From a virus (lineage: Duplodnaviria > Heunggongvirae > Uroviricota > Caudoviricetes): a DNA stretch of 9,613 nt. Both the position numbers and the translations under genes were made by a program. Position 1 is the first letter of the stretch. Each line of letters begins with the position of its first letter. Positions 1 through 9,613 of this stretch are shown here, piece by piece. Under the pieces are notes generated by a model. That model was not told the DNA's origin, did not search any database, and was given only the letters and a program-made list of their open reading frames with translations. The DNA is taken from IMG/VR virus record IMGVR_UViG_2684622670_000011, positions 1-9,613 of that record; one strand, given 5' to 3'.

Positions 1-17
1 GCCACAATAATGGGCTA

Positions 18-2000
18 TCACCCTGTGAATATGAAAATCAATGGAAAGAGGCTACACGGGTGTCCTGATTTTGTGATCCACAACAATCCATGCAGAATGA
101 CCAGAGCCTCGGCATACACCATCAGGTCAAAAGCTTCGTTGGCACCGCGACCCGGCTTACTCCATTTCCCGTCACTGCTCCGCTCTTCATACGTCAGTTC
201 GTCGTAAAACCAGCTCCCCAGCCAGTCAGGGAAATGCACATAGCCGGGACCTGGCGAGTCACGCCATAACGCGTTATTCACCCGGTCTTTCAGGGCATCC
301 GTCTGAAGAAGCCAGAGCGGCACATCACCTGCGGCCTGCGCCCGTCGGCCCGTTCGTCCGGTGTTATCAGGGAATGTACGGGTGATCAGTTTTGCGCGCC
401 GGATGCTGTCGCCCTTAAACAGGTAAATACGTTTACCAAGGCCATCACGACGGCAACGACGCCAGAATTTATAGGCATTATCAGTGACCCCGTCTTCACC
501 GCCGGAGTCCACCGCCATTGCCATCAGTCGCATTTGTTGAGAAGGATCGGAGGCCAGCGGCCAGCTTTTATGAAAAACATCCGTCAGCAGGACATCCCAG
601 TCTTCCGGATAGCTGGCCGGATCAATTCGCTGGCTCCCCCCGTCGCTGTCACCGCGCAATGACTGCGTGATGTTGTAACGATCAATAATCCAGCGTTCGC
701 CACGGCTGCCATAGCCCGTTACCTGAACCACAAAACGGCGATGACGTCCCGCCTGCACATCCACTGTCGCCACAAGGAAATTAACGCCATCCGGCACACT
801 GCGGGAAGGAACTGGCTCTGCCCGCTGCCCAAGCAGTTCACTTTTTCGTTGCTCCATGCTGGCGCGGGGAAGATAAGGTAATCCCCAGTCGGTATTGATA
901 ACCGTCTTGAGTGTTTCTTCACTTCCGGTTGTCTCGTATTCCTGTTCTGCAGTAAGCAGTTTGTAAACGAGTTGCGAGAGTGTCTGGTAAGCAGCTGCCG
1001 GACCCTCCATCCAGAATGACGCAATACGTGAGCGTCGGGGATCACCATAACGACTGCCATCCGCATTGATGGATTCACCATCCCGCAACCAGACCCCACG
1101 TCCGTTCAGCTCACGTTTTTGTTCAGGCATAATCCGTCCTGAACAGGAAGGACACTGAATATAAGCCGCCTCACTTGCCAGCACGGGATCGGCAATATCA
1201 CGGAAACCAGCAACCACATCGCCGCAGGGCTGAAAATACTCACCACAGTGTGGACAGGGCCAGTACCAGCGACGGCGATCGCCACGGTTATAGAGCGACA
1301 GTATCCCCGTGGTTGGTGGAGCCTCATGCGGTGAAGTCCGTCTCCATTTCACATCCTTCACATCCCTGCCGGGGGAACTCTCCACCAGCGTCATACCGCT
1401 GGACATAAATGTGGTGGTACGTTTTGAGGCAAGAGAGAAAGCATCCCCCTCGCCATCAATATCTTCCGGAAAACGGTCATAATCCGTCAGCGCCACGCAT
1501 TTATAATCTGATGAGGACATGATATTGACTGACGGCCAGCCGATTTTCAGGTAGTTGCCAGCAAGGAATGTTCTGTCATAAACGTTGTTGTCATTTTTGT
1601 TCGGACTCAGGCGACTGACCACTTCCGGGCTGACGCGAAACGTTCTGGCGAGTCGTTTTTTGGAGTGTTCGCGGGCTTTTTCCTCCGTCATCTGAATGAT
1701 CAGCATATCCGCAGGATCGCAAATCACGTTGTAAATCACCCAGCCGTCAATCAGGCCGATAGTCTTGCCGGTTCGTGCCGGGCCAACAAATATCACTGCG
1801 TCGTATTCACGCGAGGCCAGGCAGTTCATCGGCTCAATAACATACGGTGCCACCAGCGGATCCCACGGGACTGAGTTCCCTGCCCCCATGGGCACCCGCA
1901 TATACTGAGCAACGGCATCAGCAACCCGCATTCGTCTCGGTGCGCGAAGGATATAACCTGAATCGGTTCGTGCTGCCTTTGCGGTTTCCTGATTCAGCAT
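18..2000 (-). CDS. A: Phage terminase large subunit (lambda gpA family)
   Basis: 660-aa ORF. Walker-A-like GPARTGKT near the N-terminus; WPCPHCGEYF aligns with lambda gpA ACPHCGEEQY; VWLRDG and NEAFDLMVYAEAL segments match gpA. Start ATG overlaps the stop of the upstream small-subunit gene (TAATG), as in lambda Nu1/A. Confidence 0.9.
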   Translation of the reverse strand: MLNQETAKAARTDSGYILRAPRRMRVADAVAQYMRVPMGAGNSVPWDPLVAPYVIEPMNCLASREYDAVIFVGPARTGKTIGLIDGWVIYNVICDPADMLIIQMTEEKAREHSKKRLARTFRVSPEVVSRLSPNKNDNNVYDRTFLAGNYLKIGWPSVNIMSSSDYKCVALTDYDRFPEDIDGEGDAFSLASKRTTTFMSSGMTLVESSPGRDVKDVKWRRTSPHEAPPTTGILSLYNRGDRRRWYWPCPHCGEYFQPCGDVVAGFRDIADPVLASEAAYIQCPSCSGRIMPEQKRELNGRGVWLRDGESINADGSRYGDPRRSRIASFWMEGPAAAYQTLSQLVYKLLTAEQEYETTGSEETLKTVINTDWGLPYLPRASMEQRKSELLGQRAEPVPSRSVPDGVNFLVATVDVQAGRHRRFVVQVTGYGSRGERWIIDRYNITQSLRGDSDGGSQRIDPASYPEDWDVLLTDVFHKSWPLASDPSQQMRLMAMAVDSGGEDGVTDNAYKFWRRCRRDGLGKRIYLFKGDSIRRAKLITRTFPDNTGRTGRRAQAAGDVPLWLLQTDALKDRVNNALWRDSPGPGYVHFPDWLGSWFYDELTYEERSSDGKWSKPGRGANEAFDLMVYAEALVILHGLLWITKSGHPCSLFPLIFIFTG

Positions 2001-2494
2001 TACTCCTCCTGCTGTAGTTCCTCCTCATCATCCGCACCTGCTTCAGTCACCCGCAGGGCTATCTGATCGCGCAGATCATCAATAATGGACTGAACACGGC
2101 TCACAGCGGCAGGCTGCAGACCGCAGTCACGTTCCAGAATATCCGGTAATGTCTCCAGCACCTGCACGACCGCTTTTGCCCAGATGGCAAACTCCCGTCT
2201 GACATCACTGGCCGGAATGAGTTGTGCCGTTTCCTGTTCGAACTTAAGACGCTCACGTTCAGACTGATACCAGGCTTTGCGCTCATGCGCGTCCATTTCG
2301 CCTTCTGCAACAGGCGGTGGTAATGCCAGAAATGCCGACACAATATCAACCACCCGATAAAGCTTGAGGTTGCTTTCATGCCCCCCTGCAACGGGTAGAT
2401 TTTGCAGCCTTGCCGCAGCAGTCTGGCGATGTACACCTGACAGTGCCGCCAGTTGACTGATATTCAGCGTCAGATTTTTTAACTCTCGATCCAT
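2000..2494 (-). CDS. Terminase small subunit (Nu1-like DNA-packaging protein)
   Basis: 164 aa. N-terminal HTH-like segment (NISQLAALSGVHRQTAAARL) followed by a Gly-rich turn and LY motif, the same architecture as lambda Nu1; acidic C-terminal tail. Sits between cos and the large terminase gene. SD GGAG about 5 nt upstream of the ATG at 2492-2494. Confidence 0.7.
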   Translation of the reverse strand: MDRELKNLTLNISQLAALSGVHRQTAAARLQNLPVAGGHESNLKLYRVVDIVSAFLALPPPVAEGEMDAHERKAWYQSERERLKFEQETAQLIPASDVRREFAIWAKAVVQVLETLPDILERDCGLQPAAVSRVQSIIDDLRDQIALRVTEAGADDEEELQQEE

Positions 2495-2597
2495 ACCCGC
2501 TCCGGAATGTTTTAAACATGCATCTTGCGAACAACTTTAGGCAAACGGTGTTAGTGATGAACAAAAAATAATCAAAATCGACACCATAAAAATAAAA

Positions 2598-2628
2598 CCA
2601 CTGTAATATCAATCCATTACAGTAGTGG
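2598..2628. repeat. Imperfect inverted repeat inside cosB (candidate terminase small-subunit or IHF-associated site)
   Basis: CCACTGTAAT (2598-2607), 8-nt spacer ATCAATCC, then ATTACAGTAGTGG (2616-2628); arms are complementary except for a 2-nt insertion. Confidence 0.5.
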
Positions 2629-2663
2629 TGATGACGAATGAAATTTCAAAAACTAGCCTTTTT

Positions 2664-2685
2664 CCGCGACGCTCCCGCCCCGTGG
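2664..2685 (-). other. cosN nicking site with a variant 12-nt cohesive end
   Basis: Minus strand reads CACG-GGGCGGGAGCGT-CGCGG; lambda reads ACG-GGGCGGCGACCT-CGCGG. Flanks are identical and 8 of 12 positions of the cohesive-end 12-mer match my recollection of lambda. Confidence 0.55.
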
Positions 2686-3026
2686 CAGGCCACCCCACCG
2701 GGAGGACCCGTCAGCCTGACAGCCATGACGAACGTCTGATACAGCGCCCTGCATGAATGGCATCGGGATAATCCAGAAAGGAATAGCATCGTGCCCACAA
2801 GAATCTGTGTGAGTGTCCTGTTTCTTCCCCCCCGCACACTCACGCAGAAGGGGTTCCCCGTCGAGTTACGGTCATAGTTAATGCAGGAGACAGCGACGAT
2901 ATAGCGCACAGAAATAAATCAAGCATCCATTGAATGCATTGCATCGACAGGAGTAATGGCGTAGGCTGAACCCTTGGCTCTCTTTCGCCGCCGGCAAATC
3001 TTCAGCGGATTATCCTTGGCCGGTTT

Positions 3027-3491
3027 TTATCTGAGGCATTGCTCACGAATGTATAGCTGTGCCCCTTCCAGTTGCTTCTGCATCGTCATCAATCGGTCTC
3101 TGAGAGTGAAATAATCCCGTTCAGCGGTGTCTGCCAGTCGGGGGCTGGTTGCATCATCCACGCCGGAGGAGGCGGTGGCTTCACGCACGGCTGGACAGAC
3201 TGCTCTGATGCGCAACCGACGACGACCAGCGGCAATATCATCACGCAGAGCATCATTTTCAGCTTTCGCATCAGCTAATTCCTTTGAATATTTTGCATCG
3301 AGTGCAGCAACGTCACGCTGGCGCACCTGCATATCAGTAATGATCGCCTCTGCCAGTTTCAGCTCTCTGGCATTGTCATCGCGTTGTGTTTTGTAGGTAA
3401 TGGCGTTATCGCGGTAATGATCTGTTGCCAGCCACAGAGCACTACAGACCATCAGCAGGACAATAATCACGCCATACAGAATCCGGTTCAT
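3027..3491 (-). CDS. Rz: Rz i-spanin (inner-membrane spanin subunit)
   Basis: From the ATG at 3489-3491 the translation [55 protein letters not shown]... is near-collinear with lambda Rz (…[32 protein letters not shown]…). N-terminal TM helix. The TTG at 3542 in the ORF track is an upstream alternative I do not favour. Confidence 0.9.
   Translation of the reverse strand: [154 protein letters not shown]
3089..3271 (-). CDS. Rz1: Rz1 o-spanin (outer-membrane lipoprotein), embedded in Rz in the +1 frame
   Basis: 60 aa, MRKLKMMLCVMILPLVVVGCAS...CVKPPPPPAWMMQPAPDWQTPLNGIIS, nearly identical to lambda Rz1 (MLKLKMMLCVMMLPLVVVGC…CVKPPPPPAWIMQPPPDWQTPLNGIIS). Lipobox VVGC, proline-rich stretch, fully nested inside Rz. 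Confidence 0.9.
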   Translation of the reverse strand: MRKLKMMLCVMILPLVVVGCASEQSVQPCVKPPPPPAWMMQPAPDWQTPLNGIISLSETD

Positions 3492-3492
3492 T

Positions 3493-3630
3493 TCACCACC
3501 AGCGTATCTGACCGATGAAATAACCGGAGCCCATAACCACAAACACCAGCCAGATAAGGATGAACTTCCAGGTGGATAATTTTTCAGCCATCACTCGAAT
3601 CTCCAGAATCAGTTTGCTAAAATCAAACAC
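3493..3630 (-). CDS. Small single-pass membrane peptide (45 aa from GTG; alternative 32-aa form from the ATG at 3589-3591), unknown function
   Basis: Minus strand AAAGGAGAAAAC-GTG gives a strong SD 6 nt before the GTG at 3628-3630. Product MFDFSKLILEIRVMAEKLSTWKFILIWLVFVVMGSGYFIGQIRWW has one hydrophobic helix. Stop TGA lies 1 nt before the Rz ATG. Not present at this position in lambda, where R and Rz abut. Confidence 0.4.
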   Translation of the reverse strand: MFDFSKLILEIRVMAEKLSTWKFILIWLVFVVMGSGYFIGQIRWW

Positions 3631-3656
3631 GTTTTCTCCTTTAGCTTTCCCATGGG

Positions 3657-3707
3657 CAGAAAACAAAACCCCGCTTGCTGCCAACAAACGGGGTTTTTGC
3701 TTTTATT
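3657..3707. terminator. Bidirectional rho-independent terminator between endolysin and the small peptide gene
   Basis: Stem AAAACCCCG (3665-3673) pairs with CGGGGTTTT (3689-3697) around a 15-nt loop. Followed by TTTTTGCTTTTATT on the plus strand and by TTTTGTTTTCTG on the minus strand. Confidence 0.55.
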
Positions 3708-3786
3708 CACTTCCTTTTGCCAGTTTGCAGAATATCGTGTTATCCGCTTGTGTGAGCAAACGGCATTTTTCAGCAAAATATTCTGC

Positions 3787-4320
3787 TTATCTGTCGATCC
3801 CCCAGCACACCAGCGCACTCTCCTGGTCACGACGAATAACCTGACCGTAACAGTTATTTGAACGAATGCGGCAATCACGGCCACCGTCCTTAATCCACCA
3901 GCGAATCGCCTCGCATGCGCCTTTACGATCACCGGCATTCAGCCGCTTATAAAACGTCGACGGGAAACACTTACCGGGGCCAATGTTATAGGGACAAAAT
4001 GACGCAATACCTGCTTTTTGTGGTTCGGTCAGTGGTACTTTTATATTGCGATCCACCCATGCCAGCGCCTTATCACGTTCAATAGCGTTAACCTGGTCGC
4101 ATTTTTCCTTCGACAGCTTCATTCCCGGTATGACGGGCTTACCATCCACCATTGTGGCACCACGACAGATGGTCCATATGCCAGAACCATCACGGTATGC
4201 CGTTGTGTGGTTACCTTCTTTTTCATCCAGAAACTGGTCAAGTATTTGAGGAGCAGACGCGCCTGCAGCAATCAGCGCCAGAACGGCAGCTGACAGGCCG
4301 TATTTGATTTTTACGTTCAT
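3787..4320 (-). CDS. R: Phage endolysin, GH24 (T4-type) lysozyme with N-terminal signal/SAR segment
   Basis: 177 aa. E-x8-D-x5-T catalytic pattern (EGNHTTAYRDGSGIWT) typical of T4-like lysozymes. N-terminal Ala/Gly-rich hydrophobic segment GLSAAVLALIAAGASA, either a SAR domain or a cleavable signal peptide. Downstream of the pinholin. No obvious SD upstream of the ATG (AU-rich leader ATAAATATCC). Confidence 0.85.
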   Translation of the reverse strand: MNVKIKYGLSAAVLALIAAGASAPQILDQFLDEKEGNHTTAYRDGSGIWTICRGATMVDGKPVIPGMKLSKEKCDQVNAIERDKALAWVDRNIKVPLTEPQKAGIASFCPYNIGPGKCFPSTFYKRLNAGDRKGACEAIRWWIKDGGRDCRIRSNNCYGQVIRRDQESALVCWGIDR

Positions 4321-4433
4321 GGATATTTATCAGGATTTATCGGCTTCAAATCCCCGGATATGTTAAATCTTACCTCACCAGTGATGGGCACTGGCGGGAT
4401 GAGGATGTCAATCTGATAAACACAGAGGCGACT
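4321..4433 (+). promoter_or_regulatory. Intergenic region divergent between endolysin and the 86-aa plus-strand gene; probable promoter for the latter, with short direct repeats
   Basis: Contains GGATATTTATC (4321-4331) and GGATTTATC (4333-4341), with GGATAT again at 4356-4361. SD AGAGG at 4424-4428, 5 nt before the ATG at 4434. I could not assign -35/-10 hexamers confidently. Confidence 0.3.
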
Positions 4434-4694
4434 ATGGATTACACAAATCTACCAAAACAAACTTTTGCTGATTTAATCGCACTCAGGCAAGCAGTCGTAG
4501 CTCTAATCAACTTGTTGCCGGAGAAGGAAAAGGAATTAGTTAAAGCGCTTCTTAACAGAACTGCCGCCGATTTTTCATCATATCCACTGACAGATGACCT
4601 TGCGGACCTTCCTGAATTAATTGCAGCGTCCGCCAATAAGCTTACTGAAGAGATTTACCCTCCTCAAAAATCTTCACAAAATTCCTGCGAGTAA
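4434..4694 (+). CDS. Hypothetical acidic 86-aa protein, antisense to the phage late operon, with its own SD and terminator
   Basis: ATG with SD AGAGG; protein-like helical composition (MDYTNLPKQTFADLIALRQAVVALINLLPEKEKELVKALL…). A textbook intrinsic terminator sits 22 nt downstream of the stop (4717-4748). The last 53 nt overlap the 3' end of the convergent 183-aa gene. Confidence 0.5.
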   Translation: MDYTNLPKQTFADLIALRQAVVALINLLPEKEKELVKALLNRTAADFSSYPLTDDLADLPELIAASANKLTEEIYPPQKSSQNSCE

Positions 4695-5193
4695 CTTCAA
4701 TGCAATAATCGTAAAACGCCGCAAACTGCTCATCGCGGCGTTTTTTTTCATCTTCAGAAGGAATCAGCACCGACAATTTTTTATTCAGATCAGCGACGCT
4801 GCCCTCCAGTTTTTCAATGGGCGATTCAATATCATCTTTTTCTGACCGCAATGCCGTCGGTGGCGTCTTCAGAGAACCAGTAATTCTTCCCGGTAGCTTT
4901 CCTTTGTAGGTTATCCACACATTCTGCGCCTCTAAAATTATGGGGCGCTTTTCCGGCGACTGCTCATCCCCTTCACATAACCCGGCAGCAACATCCAGGA
5001 AGTCCTGTCTGATGCTCCTTCTGGCTGCTGCCTCATAAAACTCCAGCGCGGCACCTTCAACACGGTCCAGCGAGATGTCCAGGTCAAAAATTTCACCGTC
5101 AAAGTGTTTTTTGTCCCGTAAGGCTACAGTTACCGCCACTTTATTCTCAAAATTGCGAACTCCTTTCACAACCAGTTCATAGTCTTGAGTCAT
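4642..5193 (-). CDS. Hypothetical 183-aa soluble acidic protein inserted between holin and endolysin; N-terminus possibly DUF1327/YdfR-like (unverified)
   Basis: ATG at 5191-5193 lies 4 nt after the holin stop, with a purine-rich GAGAAGAGAG SD inside the holin 3' end, suggesting translational coupling to S. The ORF-track start at 5214 is a TTG overlapping the holin and is not favoured. No TM segments; charged, coiled-coil-like C-terminal half. Confidence 0.6.
   Translation of the reverse strand: MTQDYELVVKGVRNFENKVAVTVALRDKKHFDGEIFDLDISLDRVEGAALEFYEAAARRSIRQDFLDVAAGLCEGDEQSPEKRPIILEAQNVWITYKGKLPGRITGSLKTPPTALRSEKDDIESPIEKLEGSVADLNKKLSVLIPSEDEKKRRDEQFAAFYDYCIEVTRRNFVKIFEEGKSLQ
4717..4748 (+). 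terminator. Rho-independent terminator of the 86-aa plus-strand gene, embedded inside the minus-strand 183-aa CDS
   Basis: CGCCGC (4717-4722), 11-nt loop, GCGGCG (4735-4740), then T8 (4741-4748). On the minus strand the same bases encode KKRRDEQFAAFY of the 183-aa protein. Confidence 0.65.
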
Positions 5194-5197
5194 TGGA

Positions 5198-5413
5198 TTA
5201 CTCTCTTCTCGCAACCTTACGCCTGTCTTCTTTAATCTTGAAATAAAGGTTTGTCAGATACGTCAGCATGCCAAATACCAGACTACCCAATACACCTATT
5301 GCCGCCCACTGTGAGGGCGTGACTTTATCGAGCAACTGTAAAAACCAGTAGCCAGCACTGCCTGCAGAGGTGCTGTAGGCGATGCCCGTTGTTAACTTAT
5401 CCATGGATTTCAT
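5198..5413 (-). CDS. S: Class II holin, phage 21 S21-type pinholin with dual-start (antiholin/holin) motif
   Basis: 71 aa, [71 protein letters not shown], matching my recollection of S21 almost residue for residue. MKSM dual start, two TMDs, strong SD GGAGGTGA upstream of the ATG at 5411-5413. Confidence 0.9.
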
Positions 5414-5502
5414 AGCCTCACCTCCGCAGATAACGGATGGTGTACACGGTTTGGTTCGAAGAAGGAAAGAAGTTACATTAGCGTAAGGCCCGAACATCTA
5501 TT

Positions 5503-5534
5503 CAAAAAGAAAAACGCCAGCAATTATTCTGGCG
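5503..5534 (-). terminator. Rho-independent terminator downstream of the AraC-family gene
   Basis: Minus strand: CGCCAG, loop AATAATTG, CTGGCG, then TTTTTCTTTTTG; about 70 nt after the regulator stop codon. Confidence 0.5.
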
Positions 5535-5603
5535 TAGCTAAAAATATCGTATAATCTTACACTTCAAAAAATAACTTTATAAAATGCCATCACATCATAT
5601 CTT

Positions 5604-6317
5604 CTAAGAAAATCTTGATAAATATTGGTGCGGAGGCACACCAAAATATCCTCTAAAAACACTTACAAAATATGATGCATTGTCATACCCGCATATTCCC
5701 GCCACCTTGCCGACAGTATGGTTACTGTAGATCAATAATCTTTGCGCCATCATCATTCGTTCTTCAAGAATTAATTTACTAAACGATAACCCTTCATCTT
5801 CTAATTTTCTTTTTAACAAACTCTCGCTCATATATAATCTTGAAGATATATCACAAAGTCTCCATGACGCTGAGATATCCGAGTGAATAATAGCCTTAAC
5901 TTTACAACCTAAGCTATTAAGACTTCCGAACAAAAAACTTTGCACTATTTTCTCTGAAGATAAGACAGCAAGACATGCAAGTGATATTTGATTTCTAACT
6001 ACATCCACGGTTTTGCTATCACAATTCAAGCATGCAACCAAGTTCTTTAACAATGAAAAATCTTCACATTCTACTATAAAGTATGACGGATAAAACCTTC
6101 TTACAGAAAAAGGTGAGAGTGTGTAGTTTTTAAAGAAATCATTAACTGTTTTCTCCTCAACATCTACGATCATTAGATGATCTGTATTTGACGAAAAAAG
6201 ATCTTTTAAATTGTATTCAATGAGAACAGCATTTCCTTTTTTAAACAAAATATCTTCTTTACCAATTCGGACACCAAACGAGTTCAACACCAAAATGATA
6301 GAACATATGTATGGCAT
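5604..6317 (-). CDS. AraC/XylS-family transcriptional regulator, AppY/EnvY-like
   Basis: 237 aa from the ATG at 6315-6317, with SD AGGTGG 5 nt upstream (the GTG at 6326 is less likely). C-terminal AraC HTH region WRLCDISSRLYMSESLLKRKLEDEGLSFSKLILEERMMMAQRLL...GICGYDNASYFVSVFRGYFGVPPHQY aligns closely with my recollection of E. coli AppY. N-terminus MPYICSIILVLNSF resembles AppY MDYVCSVVFICQSF. Gene and flanks are visibly AT-rich. Confidence 0.8.
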   Translation of the reverse strand: MPYICSIILVLNSFGVRIGKEDILFKKGNAVLIEYNLKDLFSSNTDHLMIVDVEEKTVNDFFKNYTLSPFSVRRFYPSYFIVECEDFSLLKNLVACLNCDSKTVDVVRNQISLACLAVLSSEKIVQSFLFGSLNSLGCKVKAIIHSDISASWRLCDISSRLYMSESLLKRKLEDEGLSFSKLILEERMMMAQRLLIYSNHTVGKVAGICGYDNASYFVSVFRGYFGVPPHQYLSRFS

Positions 6318-6723
6318 ATTATCCACCTGATATCATTGGGGTTACACCAGGTAAGTATAGGTGGAAAATCAATATTCGCCAGTTCAACAATAAGGAAAAT
6401 CTCATTGCATCACAACTATAAAACCATGTGTTTAACTCACAAAAAACAAATCATTAAACTAATCTGTTATATTATAATAGCTGCGTGCAATAATAATATT
6501 ATATGCTCTTAATATTCACTTGAAATATCTTCATATAAAAACAGATTGAATAAAATCTTTTGGGGCTGGTATGTTTACCAACATTAAATTGCATCTCAAT
6601 GTTTTCTTTAGCGTGAACAGGATTTTTATAAAAACTGACACTATGAGCATCATAGCGTAGTTTTTACGATTGTAAATATCCTGCATACAGGAACTCATCA
6701 CTTTCAGATGATATCGCATACAG
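6318..6723 (-). promoter_or_regulatory. AT-rich ~400 bp intergenic region upstream of the AppY-like gene (probable promoter and silencing region)
   Basis: Very AT-rich with many TATAAT-like hexamers on both strands and no convincing ORF. Typical of upstream regions of horizontally acquired AraC-family genes. No specific promoter assigned. Confidence 0.3.
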
Positions 6724-7683
6724 TTAATTCACCATCAGTCTTAGAGCCAGTTCTTCCGGATAGGGATCGAAGTAATTCTGTGTAAGCAAGTAATCATTAG
6801 GATACTCACCCAGATAATGCTTCAGCAGAGTCAACGGCGCAAGAAGAGGCAATGTGCCAAAGCGATAGTTAAGTATAACCTCGCTCAACTCTTTACGCTG
6901 GCGTGTACTTAAGTAATTACTAAAATACCCCTGTATATGCATCAGCACATTCGTGTGATTTTTACGTGATGCTGGTTTTCTGAGAATCGCCATCAGATTA
7001 TCACGATACACCTCAAAGTATGATTCAAGGTCCGCCCACTCGTGTATTGCAGCCACAAATGGTCCCATATCTTTATAGCCTGCCTGGCTATGCGCCAACA
7101 ACTGAAGCTTATAACGACTATGAAAAGCTAATAACTCTCTTCTTGATAATTTCTCCTTGTAAAGGTGATTGAGCTCATGCAAAGCAAAAACTCTTTCAAT
7201 AAAATTCTCACGAAGCACTGGATCATGTAATCGCCCATCCTCTTCAACCGGTAGCCAGGAAAACTTTTCCATCAAAGTGCTCGTAAATAGTCCCACTCCA
7301 TCTTTACGACCTCGATTACCATTTTCATCATAGACACGCACGCGCTCCATGCCACAGCTGGGAGATTTAGCACAAACCACAAACCCCGATACATCCTTTA
7401 ATTTGTCCATATAAGAACGACTAAACTCTGTCATTCTCTCTGTCACATCCTCATTCTGGTCGTGGCTGAAACACATCTGTATATTTCCTTGCTTCGAGCG
7501 CACAAGTCGTAGAGCAGGACGCGGAACTGGCAGCCCTATAGCCATTTCCGGACATACTGGTCTGAATGTTACCCATTCCACTAATTTGTCCATTAAAAAG
7601 TCATCTCTTTTGTGACCACCATCAAAACGAACAGCAGAACCGCCCAAACAACCGCTGATCCCAATCACAGGTTTTTTTATCAT
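6724..7683 (-). CDS. Fused DUF523 (TudS-like [4Fe-4S] thio-nucleobase desulfurase) / DUF1722 (YbgA-like) protein
   Basis: 319 aa. N-terminal half has conserved cysteines in DUF523-like spacing (GISGCLGG, RPVCPEM, CAKSPSCG); C-terminal half is helical and YbgA-like. SD GGGGGAGG immediately upstream of the ATG at 7681-7683. Confidence 0.75.
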   Translation of the reverse strand: MIKKPVIGISGCLGGSAVRFDGGHKRDDFLMDKLVEWVTFRPVCPEMAIGLPVPRPALRLVRSKQGNIQMCFSHDQNEDVTERMTEFSRSYMDKLKDVSGFVVCAKSPSCGMERVRVYDENGNRGRKDGVGLFTSTLMEKFSWLPVEEDGRLHDPVLRENFIERVFALHELNHLYKEKLSRRELLAFHSRYKLQLLAHSQAGYKDMGPFVAAIHEWADLESYFEVYRDNLMAILRKPASRKNHTNVLMHIQGYFSNYLSTRQRKELSEVILNYRFGTLPLLAPLTLLKHYLGEYPNDYLLTQNYFDPYPEELALRLMVN

Positions 7684-7875
7684 TTCCTCCCCCTTGACTA
7701 ATTCATTAACACATAAACTTTGTAGTGCACGGACTAAATTGCCTTTCTGGCTTCATCACTGACAATTTTTCTGTTATTGACTATTCCTAATATAGTAGGA
7801 AAGTTCTTTAAGTGATCGGTCGTACTCATCTATCTTTCATACTTACTCTCAACTATCAAAAGTACAGGATTTATT
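7684..7875. promoter_or_regulatory. Divergent intergenic region between the DUF523/DUF1722 gene and the lipocalin gene
   Basis: 192 bp AT-rich spacer between divergently oriented starts; contains TTGACT hexamers (e.g. near 7693 and 7779) but no confidently paired -10 element. Confidence 0.3.
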
Positions 7876-8400
7876 ATGAAGTTATGGCCTGTGTTGACTG
7901 GCATTGCACTCTCTTTCACTCTTATAGCATGTAAGGCCCCGACACCACCTAAAGGTGTGCAGCCGATTACAAATTTTGACGCCAACCGCTACCTCGGAAA
8001 ATGGTATGAAATAGCTCGCCTCGAGAACTGGTTCGAACGTGGTCTGGAACAGGTCAGCGCTACTTATGAAAAACGGAACGACGGAGGGATTCGCGTACTT
8101 AACCGTGGATACGATCCAACGAAAAACAAATGGAGCGAGAGCGAAGGTAAAGCATACTTTACTGGAGATACTAAAACTGCAGCGTTGAAAGTTTCGTTTT
8201 TTGGCCCCTTCTATGGTGGCTATAATGTAATCAAACTGGATGATGAGTATAAGTATGCTCTTGTCAGTGGTCCGAACAGAGAATACCTATGGATTCTGGC
8301 AAGGACCCAAACTATTCCAGATAATGTAAAAGCAGACTATGTGCGTACCGCTCAAAAGTTGGGATTCAATGTCAATGAACTATTATGGGTTAATCAATAA
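7876..8400 (+). CDS. blc: Bacterial lipocalin Blc-like outer-membrane lipoprotein
   Basis: 174 aa. Signal peptide with lipobox LIAC then CKAPTPPKG. NFDANRYLGKWYEIARLENWFERGLEQV, SEGKAYFTGD, ALKVSFFGPFYGGYNVI and YLWILART blocks match E. coli Blc motifs (roughly half or more of residues identical by eye). SD AGGA 6 nt upstream of the ATG. Confidence 0.85.
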   Translation: MKLWPVLTGIALSFTLIACKAPTPPKGVQPITNFDANRYLGKWYEIARLENWFERGLEQVSATYEKRNDGGIRVLNRGYDPTKNKWSESEGKAYFTGDTKTAALKVSFFGPFYGGYNVIKLDDEYKYALVSGPNREYLWILARTQTIPDNVKADYVRTAQKLGFNVNELLWVNQ

Positions 8401-8428
8401 AATCCCCACCCGAAATGATACTTATTAG

Positions 8429-8455
8429 AAAAAAACCAGCCTTTGGGGAGGCTGG
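8429..8455 (-). terminator. Rho-independent terminator downstream of Q (tR'-like)
   Basis: Minus strand: CCAGCCT, loop CCCCAA, AGGCTGG, then T7; about 100 bp downstream of the Q stop. On the plus strand the hairpin is not followed by a T-run, so it is oriented for minus-strand transcripts. Confidence 0.55.
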
Positions 8456-8555
8456 CTAAATCAGGAAACAAGCTGTTATATGATAATAACTACGTTGCGA
8501 TTCCAACATTTAAAATGTTAGACTAATGAAAATCAGACAGCAACTTTTCCTTTAA
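8456..8555 (-). promoter_or_regulatory. Putative late promoter pR' and qut region
   Basis: Position immediately downstream of Q and upstream of the tR'-like terminator matches lambdoid late-control architecture. Candidate hexamers TTGGAA...TATCAT and a near-palindrome AACATTTTAAATGTT (plus-strand coordinates about 8501-8520); exact promoter not resolved. Confidence 0.35.
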
Positions 8556-8933
8556 TTATTTCGAACAATCAGCATCCATCTCCAATCGGAGATCCAACAC
8601 CATCAGCATGCCCTCCACTACGCCCTCAGCTTTCTGGAGCATCCTGCCAACCCAACAATCAGATCGCCCATGCTTACGTGCAAGCGCCATAAAAGTCATG
8701 CCGCCGACATAATAGTCCACCAATAAATCATGTAAATCGCTGTTGTTTTTTTTCAGGCGAGCCATACATTCACAAATGATCATCGCGTCATCGTCACAGC
8801 ATTGCGGACGAGATCTTACTTTTGAAGGAATTAATCCCTTAAAACCGGCGGCAATGGACGACCAGGTCACATCTTCATGATTATTAGCCGCCCATGCCCC
8901 CCAACGCTCAAGAACCATCTGAATATCACGCAT
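8556..8933 (-). CDS. Q: Late-gene antiterminator Q (phage 82 / DLP12 QuuD type)
   Basis: 125 aa from the ATG at 8931-8933 (SD GGAG upstream; the ORF-track start at 8948 is a TTG). [35 protein letters not shown]...[32 protein letters not shown] matches my recollection of E. coli QuuD closely. Confidence 0.85.
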
Positions 8934-8950
8934 CAACTTACTCCACAAAA

Positions 8951-9613
8951 TTAGGCCAGCACACCAATTGCCAGCGCGCGATCGATAAATCGAAAAATCA
9001 GCTCCAGTTGGGAGCCATACTTCTCTTCAAATGCCACGGTATCCGTATGCAACTCGTCGTGATGCTTTCTGCACAAAGGCAACACAAAGAGATCATGTGC
9101 TTTGGTTCCCATTCCGCCCTGCCCGTGACCAATCAGATGATGCGGATCGTCGGCTGGCATACCGCAGCAAGCACACGGCTGTGTCTTAACCCAGCGTGTG
9201 TATTTCTCCTTAACCCAACGGTGACGTTTAGGCAGCTTCATGAAAGATTCCGGAGACTCTGGATCAACGGTGATGCTTACCACCGTCTTTTCCTGTGATG
9301 GGTTTTGTTGCTGGTGGGCGTGAGGCAACGGTGCAAGATTTTTTGTGCGCTGTTTCAATATGCTGGTGGCGGTCTGCTCTCCCGGTACGATGTCGCTTTC
9401 GCGGTACACCGAGCAGTTTTTTTCCGCTGGTAATCCCAGCGAGCGACGTAATACCGCTTCCGGTAACGCGTCCGCCACCTGATTGCGGACCGCCCACCAG
9501 GATAATTCAGCCAGAGATAATTCACGCTCCTGCGTACCGCTTATTGCGTGACCGATGACGTCAATCATCCATGCTGACAGGTTTTGATGAGCAAGTTGCT
9601 CGAGTGATTCGGA
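8951..9613 (-). CDS. nin-region protein with C-terminal Cys/His-rich HNH-like zinc-binding domain; 5' end probably outside the window
   Basis: Reading frame is open from the window edge (no in-frame stop between 9569 and 9613). C-terminal region has CACCG...DDPHHL...CRKHHDELH, a CxxC...HH...CxxH pattern. Sits immediately upstream of Q, where lambdoid phages carry NinG / YbcO / YdfU-type genes. An internal ATG at 9239-9241 would give a 96-aa domain-only product. Confidence 0.5.

Follow-up and report, generated by a model that had tools for sequence, protein, structure and literature searches.

A predicted tRNA 4-thiouridine desulfidase, RudS, in an apparent cargo cassette between the Q antiterminator and the lysis genes of a lambdoid phage

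Here we describe a gene on a Caudoviricetes genome (IMG/VR record IMGVR_UViG_2684622670_000011, positions 1 to 9,613; these 9,613 nucleotides are called the window throughout) which, to judge from its sequence, encodes RudS, a tRNA 4-thiouridine (s4U) desulfidase. We propose that the enzyme is carried in a cargo cassette of the late transcription unit and lowers the s4U content of host tRNA, and we put the probability of this proposal as a whole at about 0.8. Its two parts do not stand equally firmly. That RudS would convert s4U at position 8 of tRNA (s4U8) to uridine is held with high confidence; that the phage benefits through the lowering of s4U is held with low confidence. The original prediction, of a phage-borne DUF523/DUF1722 fusion related to the desulfurase TudS, is confirmed as an observation. 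As an interpretation it was partly right, and it has been overtaken by the 2024 characterisation of RudS, which included a phage orthologue 91.5% identical to the protein described here. The molecular biochemistry thus appears to be known already, the window protein being an allele almost identical in sequence to the enzyme whose properties were worked out that year.

Table 1. Features of the window in order of position. All genes lie on the minus strand except blc and the 86-aa ORF.
Feature	Position	Strand	Basis or remark
DUF1327, lysozyme, Rz/Rz1 and terminase genes		-	Farther downstream of holin
86-aa ORF between lysozyme and DUF1327 genes	4434-4694	+	phrog_2572 (unknown function), full length; no Pfam match
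P21-type holin, first lysis gene past the cassette	5198..5497	-	Pfam Phage_holin_2_1, E=9e-34
Terminator-like hairpin with T-run, downstream edge of the cassette	5514..5535	-	Terminator scan; between AraC-like gene and holin
AraC-family regulator (AppY/YdeO/GadX-like), third cassette gene	5604..6326	-	Pfam HTH_18 and HTH_AraC
rudS, 319-aa TudS-DUF1722 fusion, predicted tRNA 4-thiouridine desulfidase	6724..7683, stop codon included	-	ORF and Pfam
DUF1722 domain, aa 192-309, all-helical	6757..7110	-	tRNA-binding half in RudS
Predicted catalytic TudS/DUF523 domain, aa 7-149	7237..7665	-	Ligands C12, C44, C110; E46, R55, S107, S109
Divergent blc/rudS intergenic region	7684..7875		Holds 18-bp near-palindrome
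blc-like outer-membrane lipocalin	7876..8400	+	Pfam Lipocalin_2, E=9e-43
tR'-like intrinsic terminator	8427..8457	-	GCCAGCCU-loop-AGGCUGG then U7; between Q and cassette; terminator scan
Q21-family late-gene antiterminator	8556..8948	-	Pfam Phage_antitermQ, E=8e-51
DUF968 gene	8951..9568, off window end	-	Upstream of Q

The rudS interval is filled exactly by one unbroken ORF with an ATG start (Table 1). Its product matches PF04463 (2-thiour_desulf, formerly DUF523) with E=7e-40 and, on the same 319-aa polypeptide, PF08349 (DUF1722) with E=9e-40, so that the predicted fused architecture is borne out. Both Pfam scores are well over the curated cut-offs, and because they exceed them so far a chance ORF can be excluded at 6724..7683. 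The protein also matches phrog_3275 over its full length, and residues 161-315 match the NCBIfam YbgA model with 189 bits; the phage gene is labelled 'YbgA family protein' in RefSeq, a name that masks the enzyme half. An AF2 model of the window RudS built with 144 diverse sequences reached a pLDDT of 96.6 and replaced an earlier AlphaFold model from 37 close homologues (pLDDT 61.6), which was dropped.

The cysteine pattern from which membership of DUF523 had been predicted also holds. Three of the five cysteines in the window RudS, C12, C44 and C110, line up with the [4Fe-4S] ligands C10, C43 and C104 of TudS (PDB 6Z92), a protein only ~25% identical to that of the window, and C71 and C104 are unconserved. 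These comparisons were made in an alignment of 146 sequences, the window protein and 145 homologues, 140 of them cluster representatives that are 35-56% identical to the window protein. Conservation of the cysteines, on which the original prediction had been made to depend, was found in 142-144 of the 146 members (144 for C12, 144 for C44 and 142 for C110). E46, R55, S107 and S109 are likewise present in the window RudS and are kept in 139-145 of the 146 sequences; they were matched to the catalytic residues of RudS_KT (E51, S111, S113, R60) by a constant offset inside the CPE and SPSCG motifs. The positions that contact tRNA in RudS_KT were also located by sequence offset, limited to motif-anchored residues, and the family consensus is held at R19, F20, G22, R59, R114, Y118, E148, R151, S239 and R240. 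Two positions depart from the usual residue. S142, immediately ahead of the conserved LPVEE tRNA-contact loop, is found in every phage allele examined and is proline in 138 of the 146 family members, and Q69 is private to the window allele, all other copies examined having arginine.

The fusion of TudS to DUF1722 was named RudS and identified as a tRNA 4-thiouridine desulfidase by Jamontas et al. (NAR 2024; PMC11417400), who found that six orthologues lowered the s4U of E. coli tRNA by 4.7- to 26-fold, that purified RudS_KT bound tRNA and removed its sulfur in vitro, that mutation of its Cys, Glu, Ser and Arg residues abolished activity and that its overexpression reduces the growth delay caused by UVA. 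Within the family the [4Fe-4S] cluster has been seen by spectroscopy in RudS_KT only (PMC11417400). DUF1722, which the original prediction described as being of unknown function, is now known as the tRNA-binding domain of RudS and touches the anticodon region (PMC11417400). Among the six orthologues was RudS_vir, the product of gp66 of Escherichia phage 1H12 (H3V29_gp66, NC_049947), which has Cys12, Cys44 and Cys110 and lowered tRNA s4U when expressed in E. coli BL21, though by less than its protein level predicted (PMC11417400). RudS proteins allowed growth on 4-thiouracil only after a lag, which was shortest for RudS_vir among those tested, and none supported growth on 2-thiouracil (PMC11417400). 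Because RudS_vir combines low tRNA activity for its protein level with the shortest 4-thiouracil lag, the phage enzyme may be less specific for tRNA, with some TudS-like activity on free bases persisting.

The window RudS is identical to 1H12 gp66 at 292 of 319 residues (91.5%), the 27 substitutions leaving the catalytic residues untouched; it is 97.2% identical to the copy of phage IdasGreatGrand and one residue away from that of a Qin-like prophage. The two phage proteins share their length of 319 aa, their three ligand cysteines and the gene order Q, blc (opposite strand), rudS, AraC-like gene and holin, whereas the downstream endolysin and Rz modules of 1H12 are unlike those of the window. 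The fusion and its catalytic residues are common also to RudS_KT (Pseudomonas putida PP_0741) and RudS_ST (Salmonella STM1389/ORF319), and RudS_ST equals the window RudS in length and in its Cys12/44/110 numbering. Two stand-alone proteins mark off what each half lacks by itself. TudS is a single domain of ~150-166 aa that acts on free thiouracils and 4-thio-UMP and leaves the s4U level of tRNA unlowered, in contrast to the 319-aa window RudS with its DUF1722; E. coli YbgA (b0707) is a stand-alone DUF1722 homologous to aa 161-315 of the window protein, is without the catalytic domain and leaves s4U unaffected (PMC11417400).

According to the mechanism that we propose, C12, C44 and C110 would hold the [4Fe-4S] cluster of a monomeric RudS, and its free fourth iron would bind the sulfur of s4U at position 8 of the tRNA. 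E46, oriented by R55, S107 and S109, would activate a water molecule, and the sulfur would be replaced to give uridine. The helical DUF1722 half is expected to dock the anticodon arm, for which reason the substrate would be whole tRNA and not the free base.

The surroundings of rudS suggest how the gene reached the phage and how it might be transcribed. It comes after Q and the tR' terminator and before the lysis genes, all of which share its strand, and by its position falls within the Q-dependent late unit. The Q protein also matches the Q chains of PDB 6P18 and 6JNX (E=5e-9). The RNA fold of the 91 nt around the tR'-like terminator has z=-3.55, and 1H12 and IdasGreatGrand preserve the hairpin together with most of the T-run. 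Candidate late promoters are a 9/12 site at 8584..8555 and a weaker TTGCTG-17-TAACAT, read by eye, at 8543..8515. To reach the lysis genes, polymerase modified by Q would have to transcribe rudS first. An upstream DUF968 gene that might have been thought truncated simply continues past the window end. A search of Rfam at E<=1 returned two sub-threshold chance matches, one of them the terminator hairpin, and the window was found to hold no tRNA genes.

Three genes, blc, rudS and the AraC-like gene, look like a cargo cassette, apparently imported. The module behaves as such because blc, divergent from rudS, runs antisense to the late transcript. The cassette has a GC content of 30-45% (~32% in the AraC-like gene) against 50-56% for the terminase genes. 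The lipocalin passes the NCBIfam cut-off for Blc (312 bits against 267), and the window gene is a second copy of the outer-membrane lipocalin gene Blc. For the AraC-like protein YdeO is the best NCBIfam match (1e-31, under the cut-off), followed by GadX and HilD, and AppY of the prophage DLP12 is 30% identical to it over full length; among copies its identity ranges from 78 to 100%, as against 97-99.7% for rudS. The order Q, blc on the opposite strand, rudS, AraC-like gene and holin is constant in 80 viral contigs, except where a contig ends and in two cases that have lost the AraC gene, and recurs in 1H12, IdasGreatGrand and the Qin-like prophage. The pair blc and rudS is present in 79 of these 80 contigs, among which DUF968, the endolysin (down to 30% identity) and the Rz modules vary. 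The original placement of rudS in a late operon therefore holds as regards location between Q and holin; it is an assignment by position, to be read beside an antisense blc and a cassette that seems imported. Shiga toxin genes are familiar cargo between Q and the holin of lambdoid prophages. In DLP12-type prophages and in related quuD-essD (Q-essD) backbones the slot between Q/tR' and holin holds a porin gene, whereas the cargo of the window is an eraser of tRNA modification together with a lipocalin and a regulator. Apart from the RudS paper, a literature search turned up no account of the cassette in prophages.

The divergent region between blc and rudS is better conserved than the gene that it precedes, with 96% mean column identity among the window, 1H12 and IdasGreatGrand compared with 91.5% nucleotide identity of the rudS coding DNA to 1H12. 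In its middle, at 7784-7801, is an 18-bp near-palindrome (TTCCTAATA/TAGTAGGAA) that is kept in 1H12 and altered at one position in IdasGreatGrand, and which we regard as a candidate operator. A promoter scan found no sigma-70-like site of at least 9/12 in the intergenic region on either strand, and hence no promoter of that strength upstream of either rudS or blc. Light control is not evident, because the genes of the window, searched by ORF and Pfam, include neither a MerR/LitR regulator nor a photolyase; the divergent blc-like gene is the only remnant of the chromosomal locus in the window.

Chromosomal relatives of rudS point to where that locus may have come from. Chromosomal RudS genes adjoin a MerR-family regulator, a photolyase or a photo-oxidative-stress operon (CFA-synthase, DUF2878, DUF3833), whereas the phage gene is without MerR, adjoins an AraC-type regulator and lies by position in a Q-dependent unit. 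The MerR regulator of chromosomal rudS has been tied to light induction (PMC11417400). In Enterobacter and Leclercia (nine loci, four of them read by name) blc is divergent from merR, uraH, rudS and an AAA gene; in Raoultella and Buttiauxella it is divergent from merR and rudS, and in Kluyvera cryocrescens from rudS directly. Enterobacterial chromosomal RudS proteins are 69-75% identical to the window protein, and the chromosomal Blc copies paired with rudS are 72-78% identical to the phage Blc. From these gene orders we infer that the divergent blc and rudS of the phage are a captured enterobacterial unit minus its MerR regulator, the cassette having probably been taken from a light-stress locus of the form blc divergent from merR-(uraH)-rudS. 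At 11 further loci, Citrobacter included, rudS closes the CFA-synthase/DUF2878/DUF3833 operon. The Citrobacter operon encodes an SDR, an amine oxidase, DUF1365, a CFA-synthase-like methyltransferase, DUF2878, a 175-aa protein, DUF3833 and, last, RudS, and presumably resembles the clusters for lipid modification under singlet-oxygen or light stress.

Other mobile copies of rudS were also encountered. A second RudS with 71% protein identity occurs at ~60 places on E. coli plasmids. On pCFSAN061762 (NZ_CP042902.1, 7982-10726) a partial lipocalin gene is divergent from genes for MerR, a UraH-like protein, RudS and an AAA ATPase, the RudS module adjoining IS26 and a class 1 integron; this is the Enterobacter chromosomal module mobilised onto a resistance plasmid. 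A 10-mer, GTGCACTACA, that occurs between blc and rudS of the phage and again between the lipocalin and merR genes of pCFSAN061762 was set aside as a chance match; it contains the palindromic GTGCAC and lies in opposite orientation to the genes. A prophage of Proteus myxofaciens ATCC 19692 (2373-8754) carries DUF968, Q, a 475-aa lysozyme/amidase gene and a rudS whose product is 57% identical to that of the window, followed by a gene for an ADP-ribosyltransferase like pertussis S1 and enterotoxin A and by two small ORFs. Since this rudS follows Q in an unrelated prophage, it must have entered the post-Q slot independently. A Salmonella enterica copy (72% identical) is flanked by ttcA and a DUF1367 gene, and in one contig a fragment of a phage integrase gene is also present; it looks more like a prophage remnant than like the MerR-adjacent ORF319/STM1389 locus of the RudS paper. 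A 3.2-kb contig with rudS (92% identical), the AraC-like gene and holin, from a MAG labelled Candidatus Nanosynbacter, is almost certainly a binning contaminant.

RudS has been said to be lacking from E. coli, both in the paper that named it (PMC11417400) and in a review (MMBR, 2026). This is contradicted by our survey and is true only of the K-12 and B laboratory strains. DNA like rudS is present in 1183 of 5426 complete E. coli genomes (~22%), nearly always on the chromosome and nearly always in the form of the prophage cassette described here, and at least 80% of the gene is found in 1111 of those 1183; the remaining ~72 (~6%) have partial copies only. A 2.2-kb query for the cassette matched 1154 E. 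coli genomes, and the whole segment from Q to holin was present at a coverage of at least 80% in 952. Several E. coli genomes carry an IS3, IS1, IS2 or IS200 element within the cassette or next to it, and in one of them rudS itself is broken by IS1. Selection on the cassette is thus not universal, since IS elements break or border some of the E. coli copies and ~6% are truncated.

Such interruptions and partial copies would be expected of a decaying, non-functional passenger. That description is largely refuted and hardly credible. The dN/dS ratio is 0.14 between the rudS genes of the window and 1H12 and 0.11 between those of 1H12 and IdasGreatGrand, all 79 copies on IMG/VR contigs are intact at 319 aa, with the catalytic residues unchanged in each of their 14 alleles, and activity is known for the 1H12 orthologue. 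Purifying selection acts on DUF1722 just as it does on the remainder of the protein, and none of the 79 copies has lost the domain, a result that bears equally on the suggestion, made in the original prediction, that the enzyme salvages or detoxifies free thiolated nucleobases. On that account RudS would behave as stand-alone TudS does, and would act during lytic growth on 4-thiouracil, 4-thiouridine or 4-thio-UMP released from degraded host tRNA. The catalytic domain does have the TudS fold with the same active-site residues, and the short 4-thiouracil lag and low tRNA activity per protein level of RudS_vir are what such a role would predict. However, no RudS equalled TudS in rescue of a uracil auxotroph, the lag on 4-thiouracil and the failure on 2-thiouracil speak against free bases as primary substrates, RudS of P. 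putida takes no part in thiouracil use, and tRNA s4U was lowered by RudS_vir and not by TudS alone. Salvage is therefore not the primary function, and as an account of why phages keep the gene we consider it improbable. The other suggestion made at the outset, interference with a host system dependent on thiolated nucleotides, came close to the truth because s4U8 of tRNA is the near-UV sensor.

If lowering of host s4U is the function, as we prefer, expression could come from the late unit, from a promoter of the gene's own or from both, and the expected outcome would be less near-UV cross-linking of tRNA, less growth delay and a weaker stringent response, whether in lysogens or in cells that sunlight or UV has induced. 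One possibility, which we take seriously while rating it somewhat short of even, is lysogenic conversion: rudS would be read from its own promoter, perhaps under AppY-like control, to the benefit of the host under near-UV or oxidative stress, and late read-through would be incidental. The antisense blc needs a promoter of its own in any case, the cassette has a foreign GC content and its own downstream terminator, its intergenic region is more conserved than the rudS coding DNA, and a porin gene occupies the same slot in related Q-essD backbones; moreover, Qin-like prophages in which early-region genes have become pseudogenes still carry the cassette, as do ~22% of E. coli genomes. Against this, the scan gave no sigma-70-like promoter of at least 9/12 upstream of rudS, the gene is in late-operon orientation in every copy examined, and the MerR regulator of its chromosomal relatives is absent. 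An effect independent of light is a good deal harder to credit, and we think it very improbable. The loss of s4U might reshape the host tRNA pool to the advantage of the phage, for example through decay of s4U-less tRNA-Tyr and tRNA-Ser by the degradosome or as evasion of a defence that targets tRNA. Overexpression of RudS_KT halved two tRNAs, one tRNA-Ser and tRNA-Tyr, s4U loss exposes tRNA-Tyr and tRNA-Ser to the degradosome in Vibrio cholerae, and the Proteus rudS stands after Q beside a toxin gene in an unrelated prophage; but the effect on E. coli tRNA levels is modest, no PADLOC defence model was matched by any cassette protein, and our search found no report tying s4U8 to a defence system.

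Returning to the lowering of s4U as the preferred function, the position of rudS in the Q-dependent unit could be an adaptation of lambdoid phages to induction by sunlight, a reading that we offer as unlikely though not far-fetched. UVB damage would induce the prophage while UVA would cross-link s4U8 to C13 and provoke a burst of ppGpp. Such a burst is reported to inhibit lambdoid lytic development. By stripping s4U from the tRNA pool RudS would keep translation running for the phage.

The cassette is fixed in one group of phages and a Proteus prophage has acquired rudS independently, both in the slot that follows Q, which raises the question of what temperate phages gain from erasing a modification of host tRNA. 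For E. coli itself, near-UV growth delay, s4U levels and RNA labelling based on s4U may vary between strains. If the sunlight reading were true, about one fifth of E. coli strains would be unlike K-12 in their near-UV physiology.
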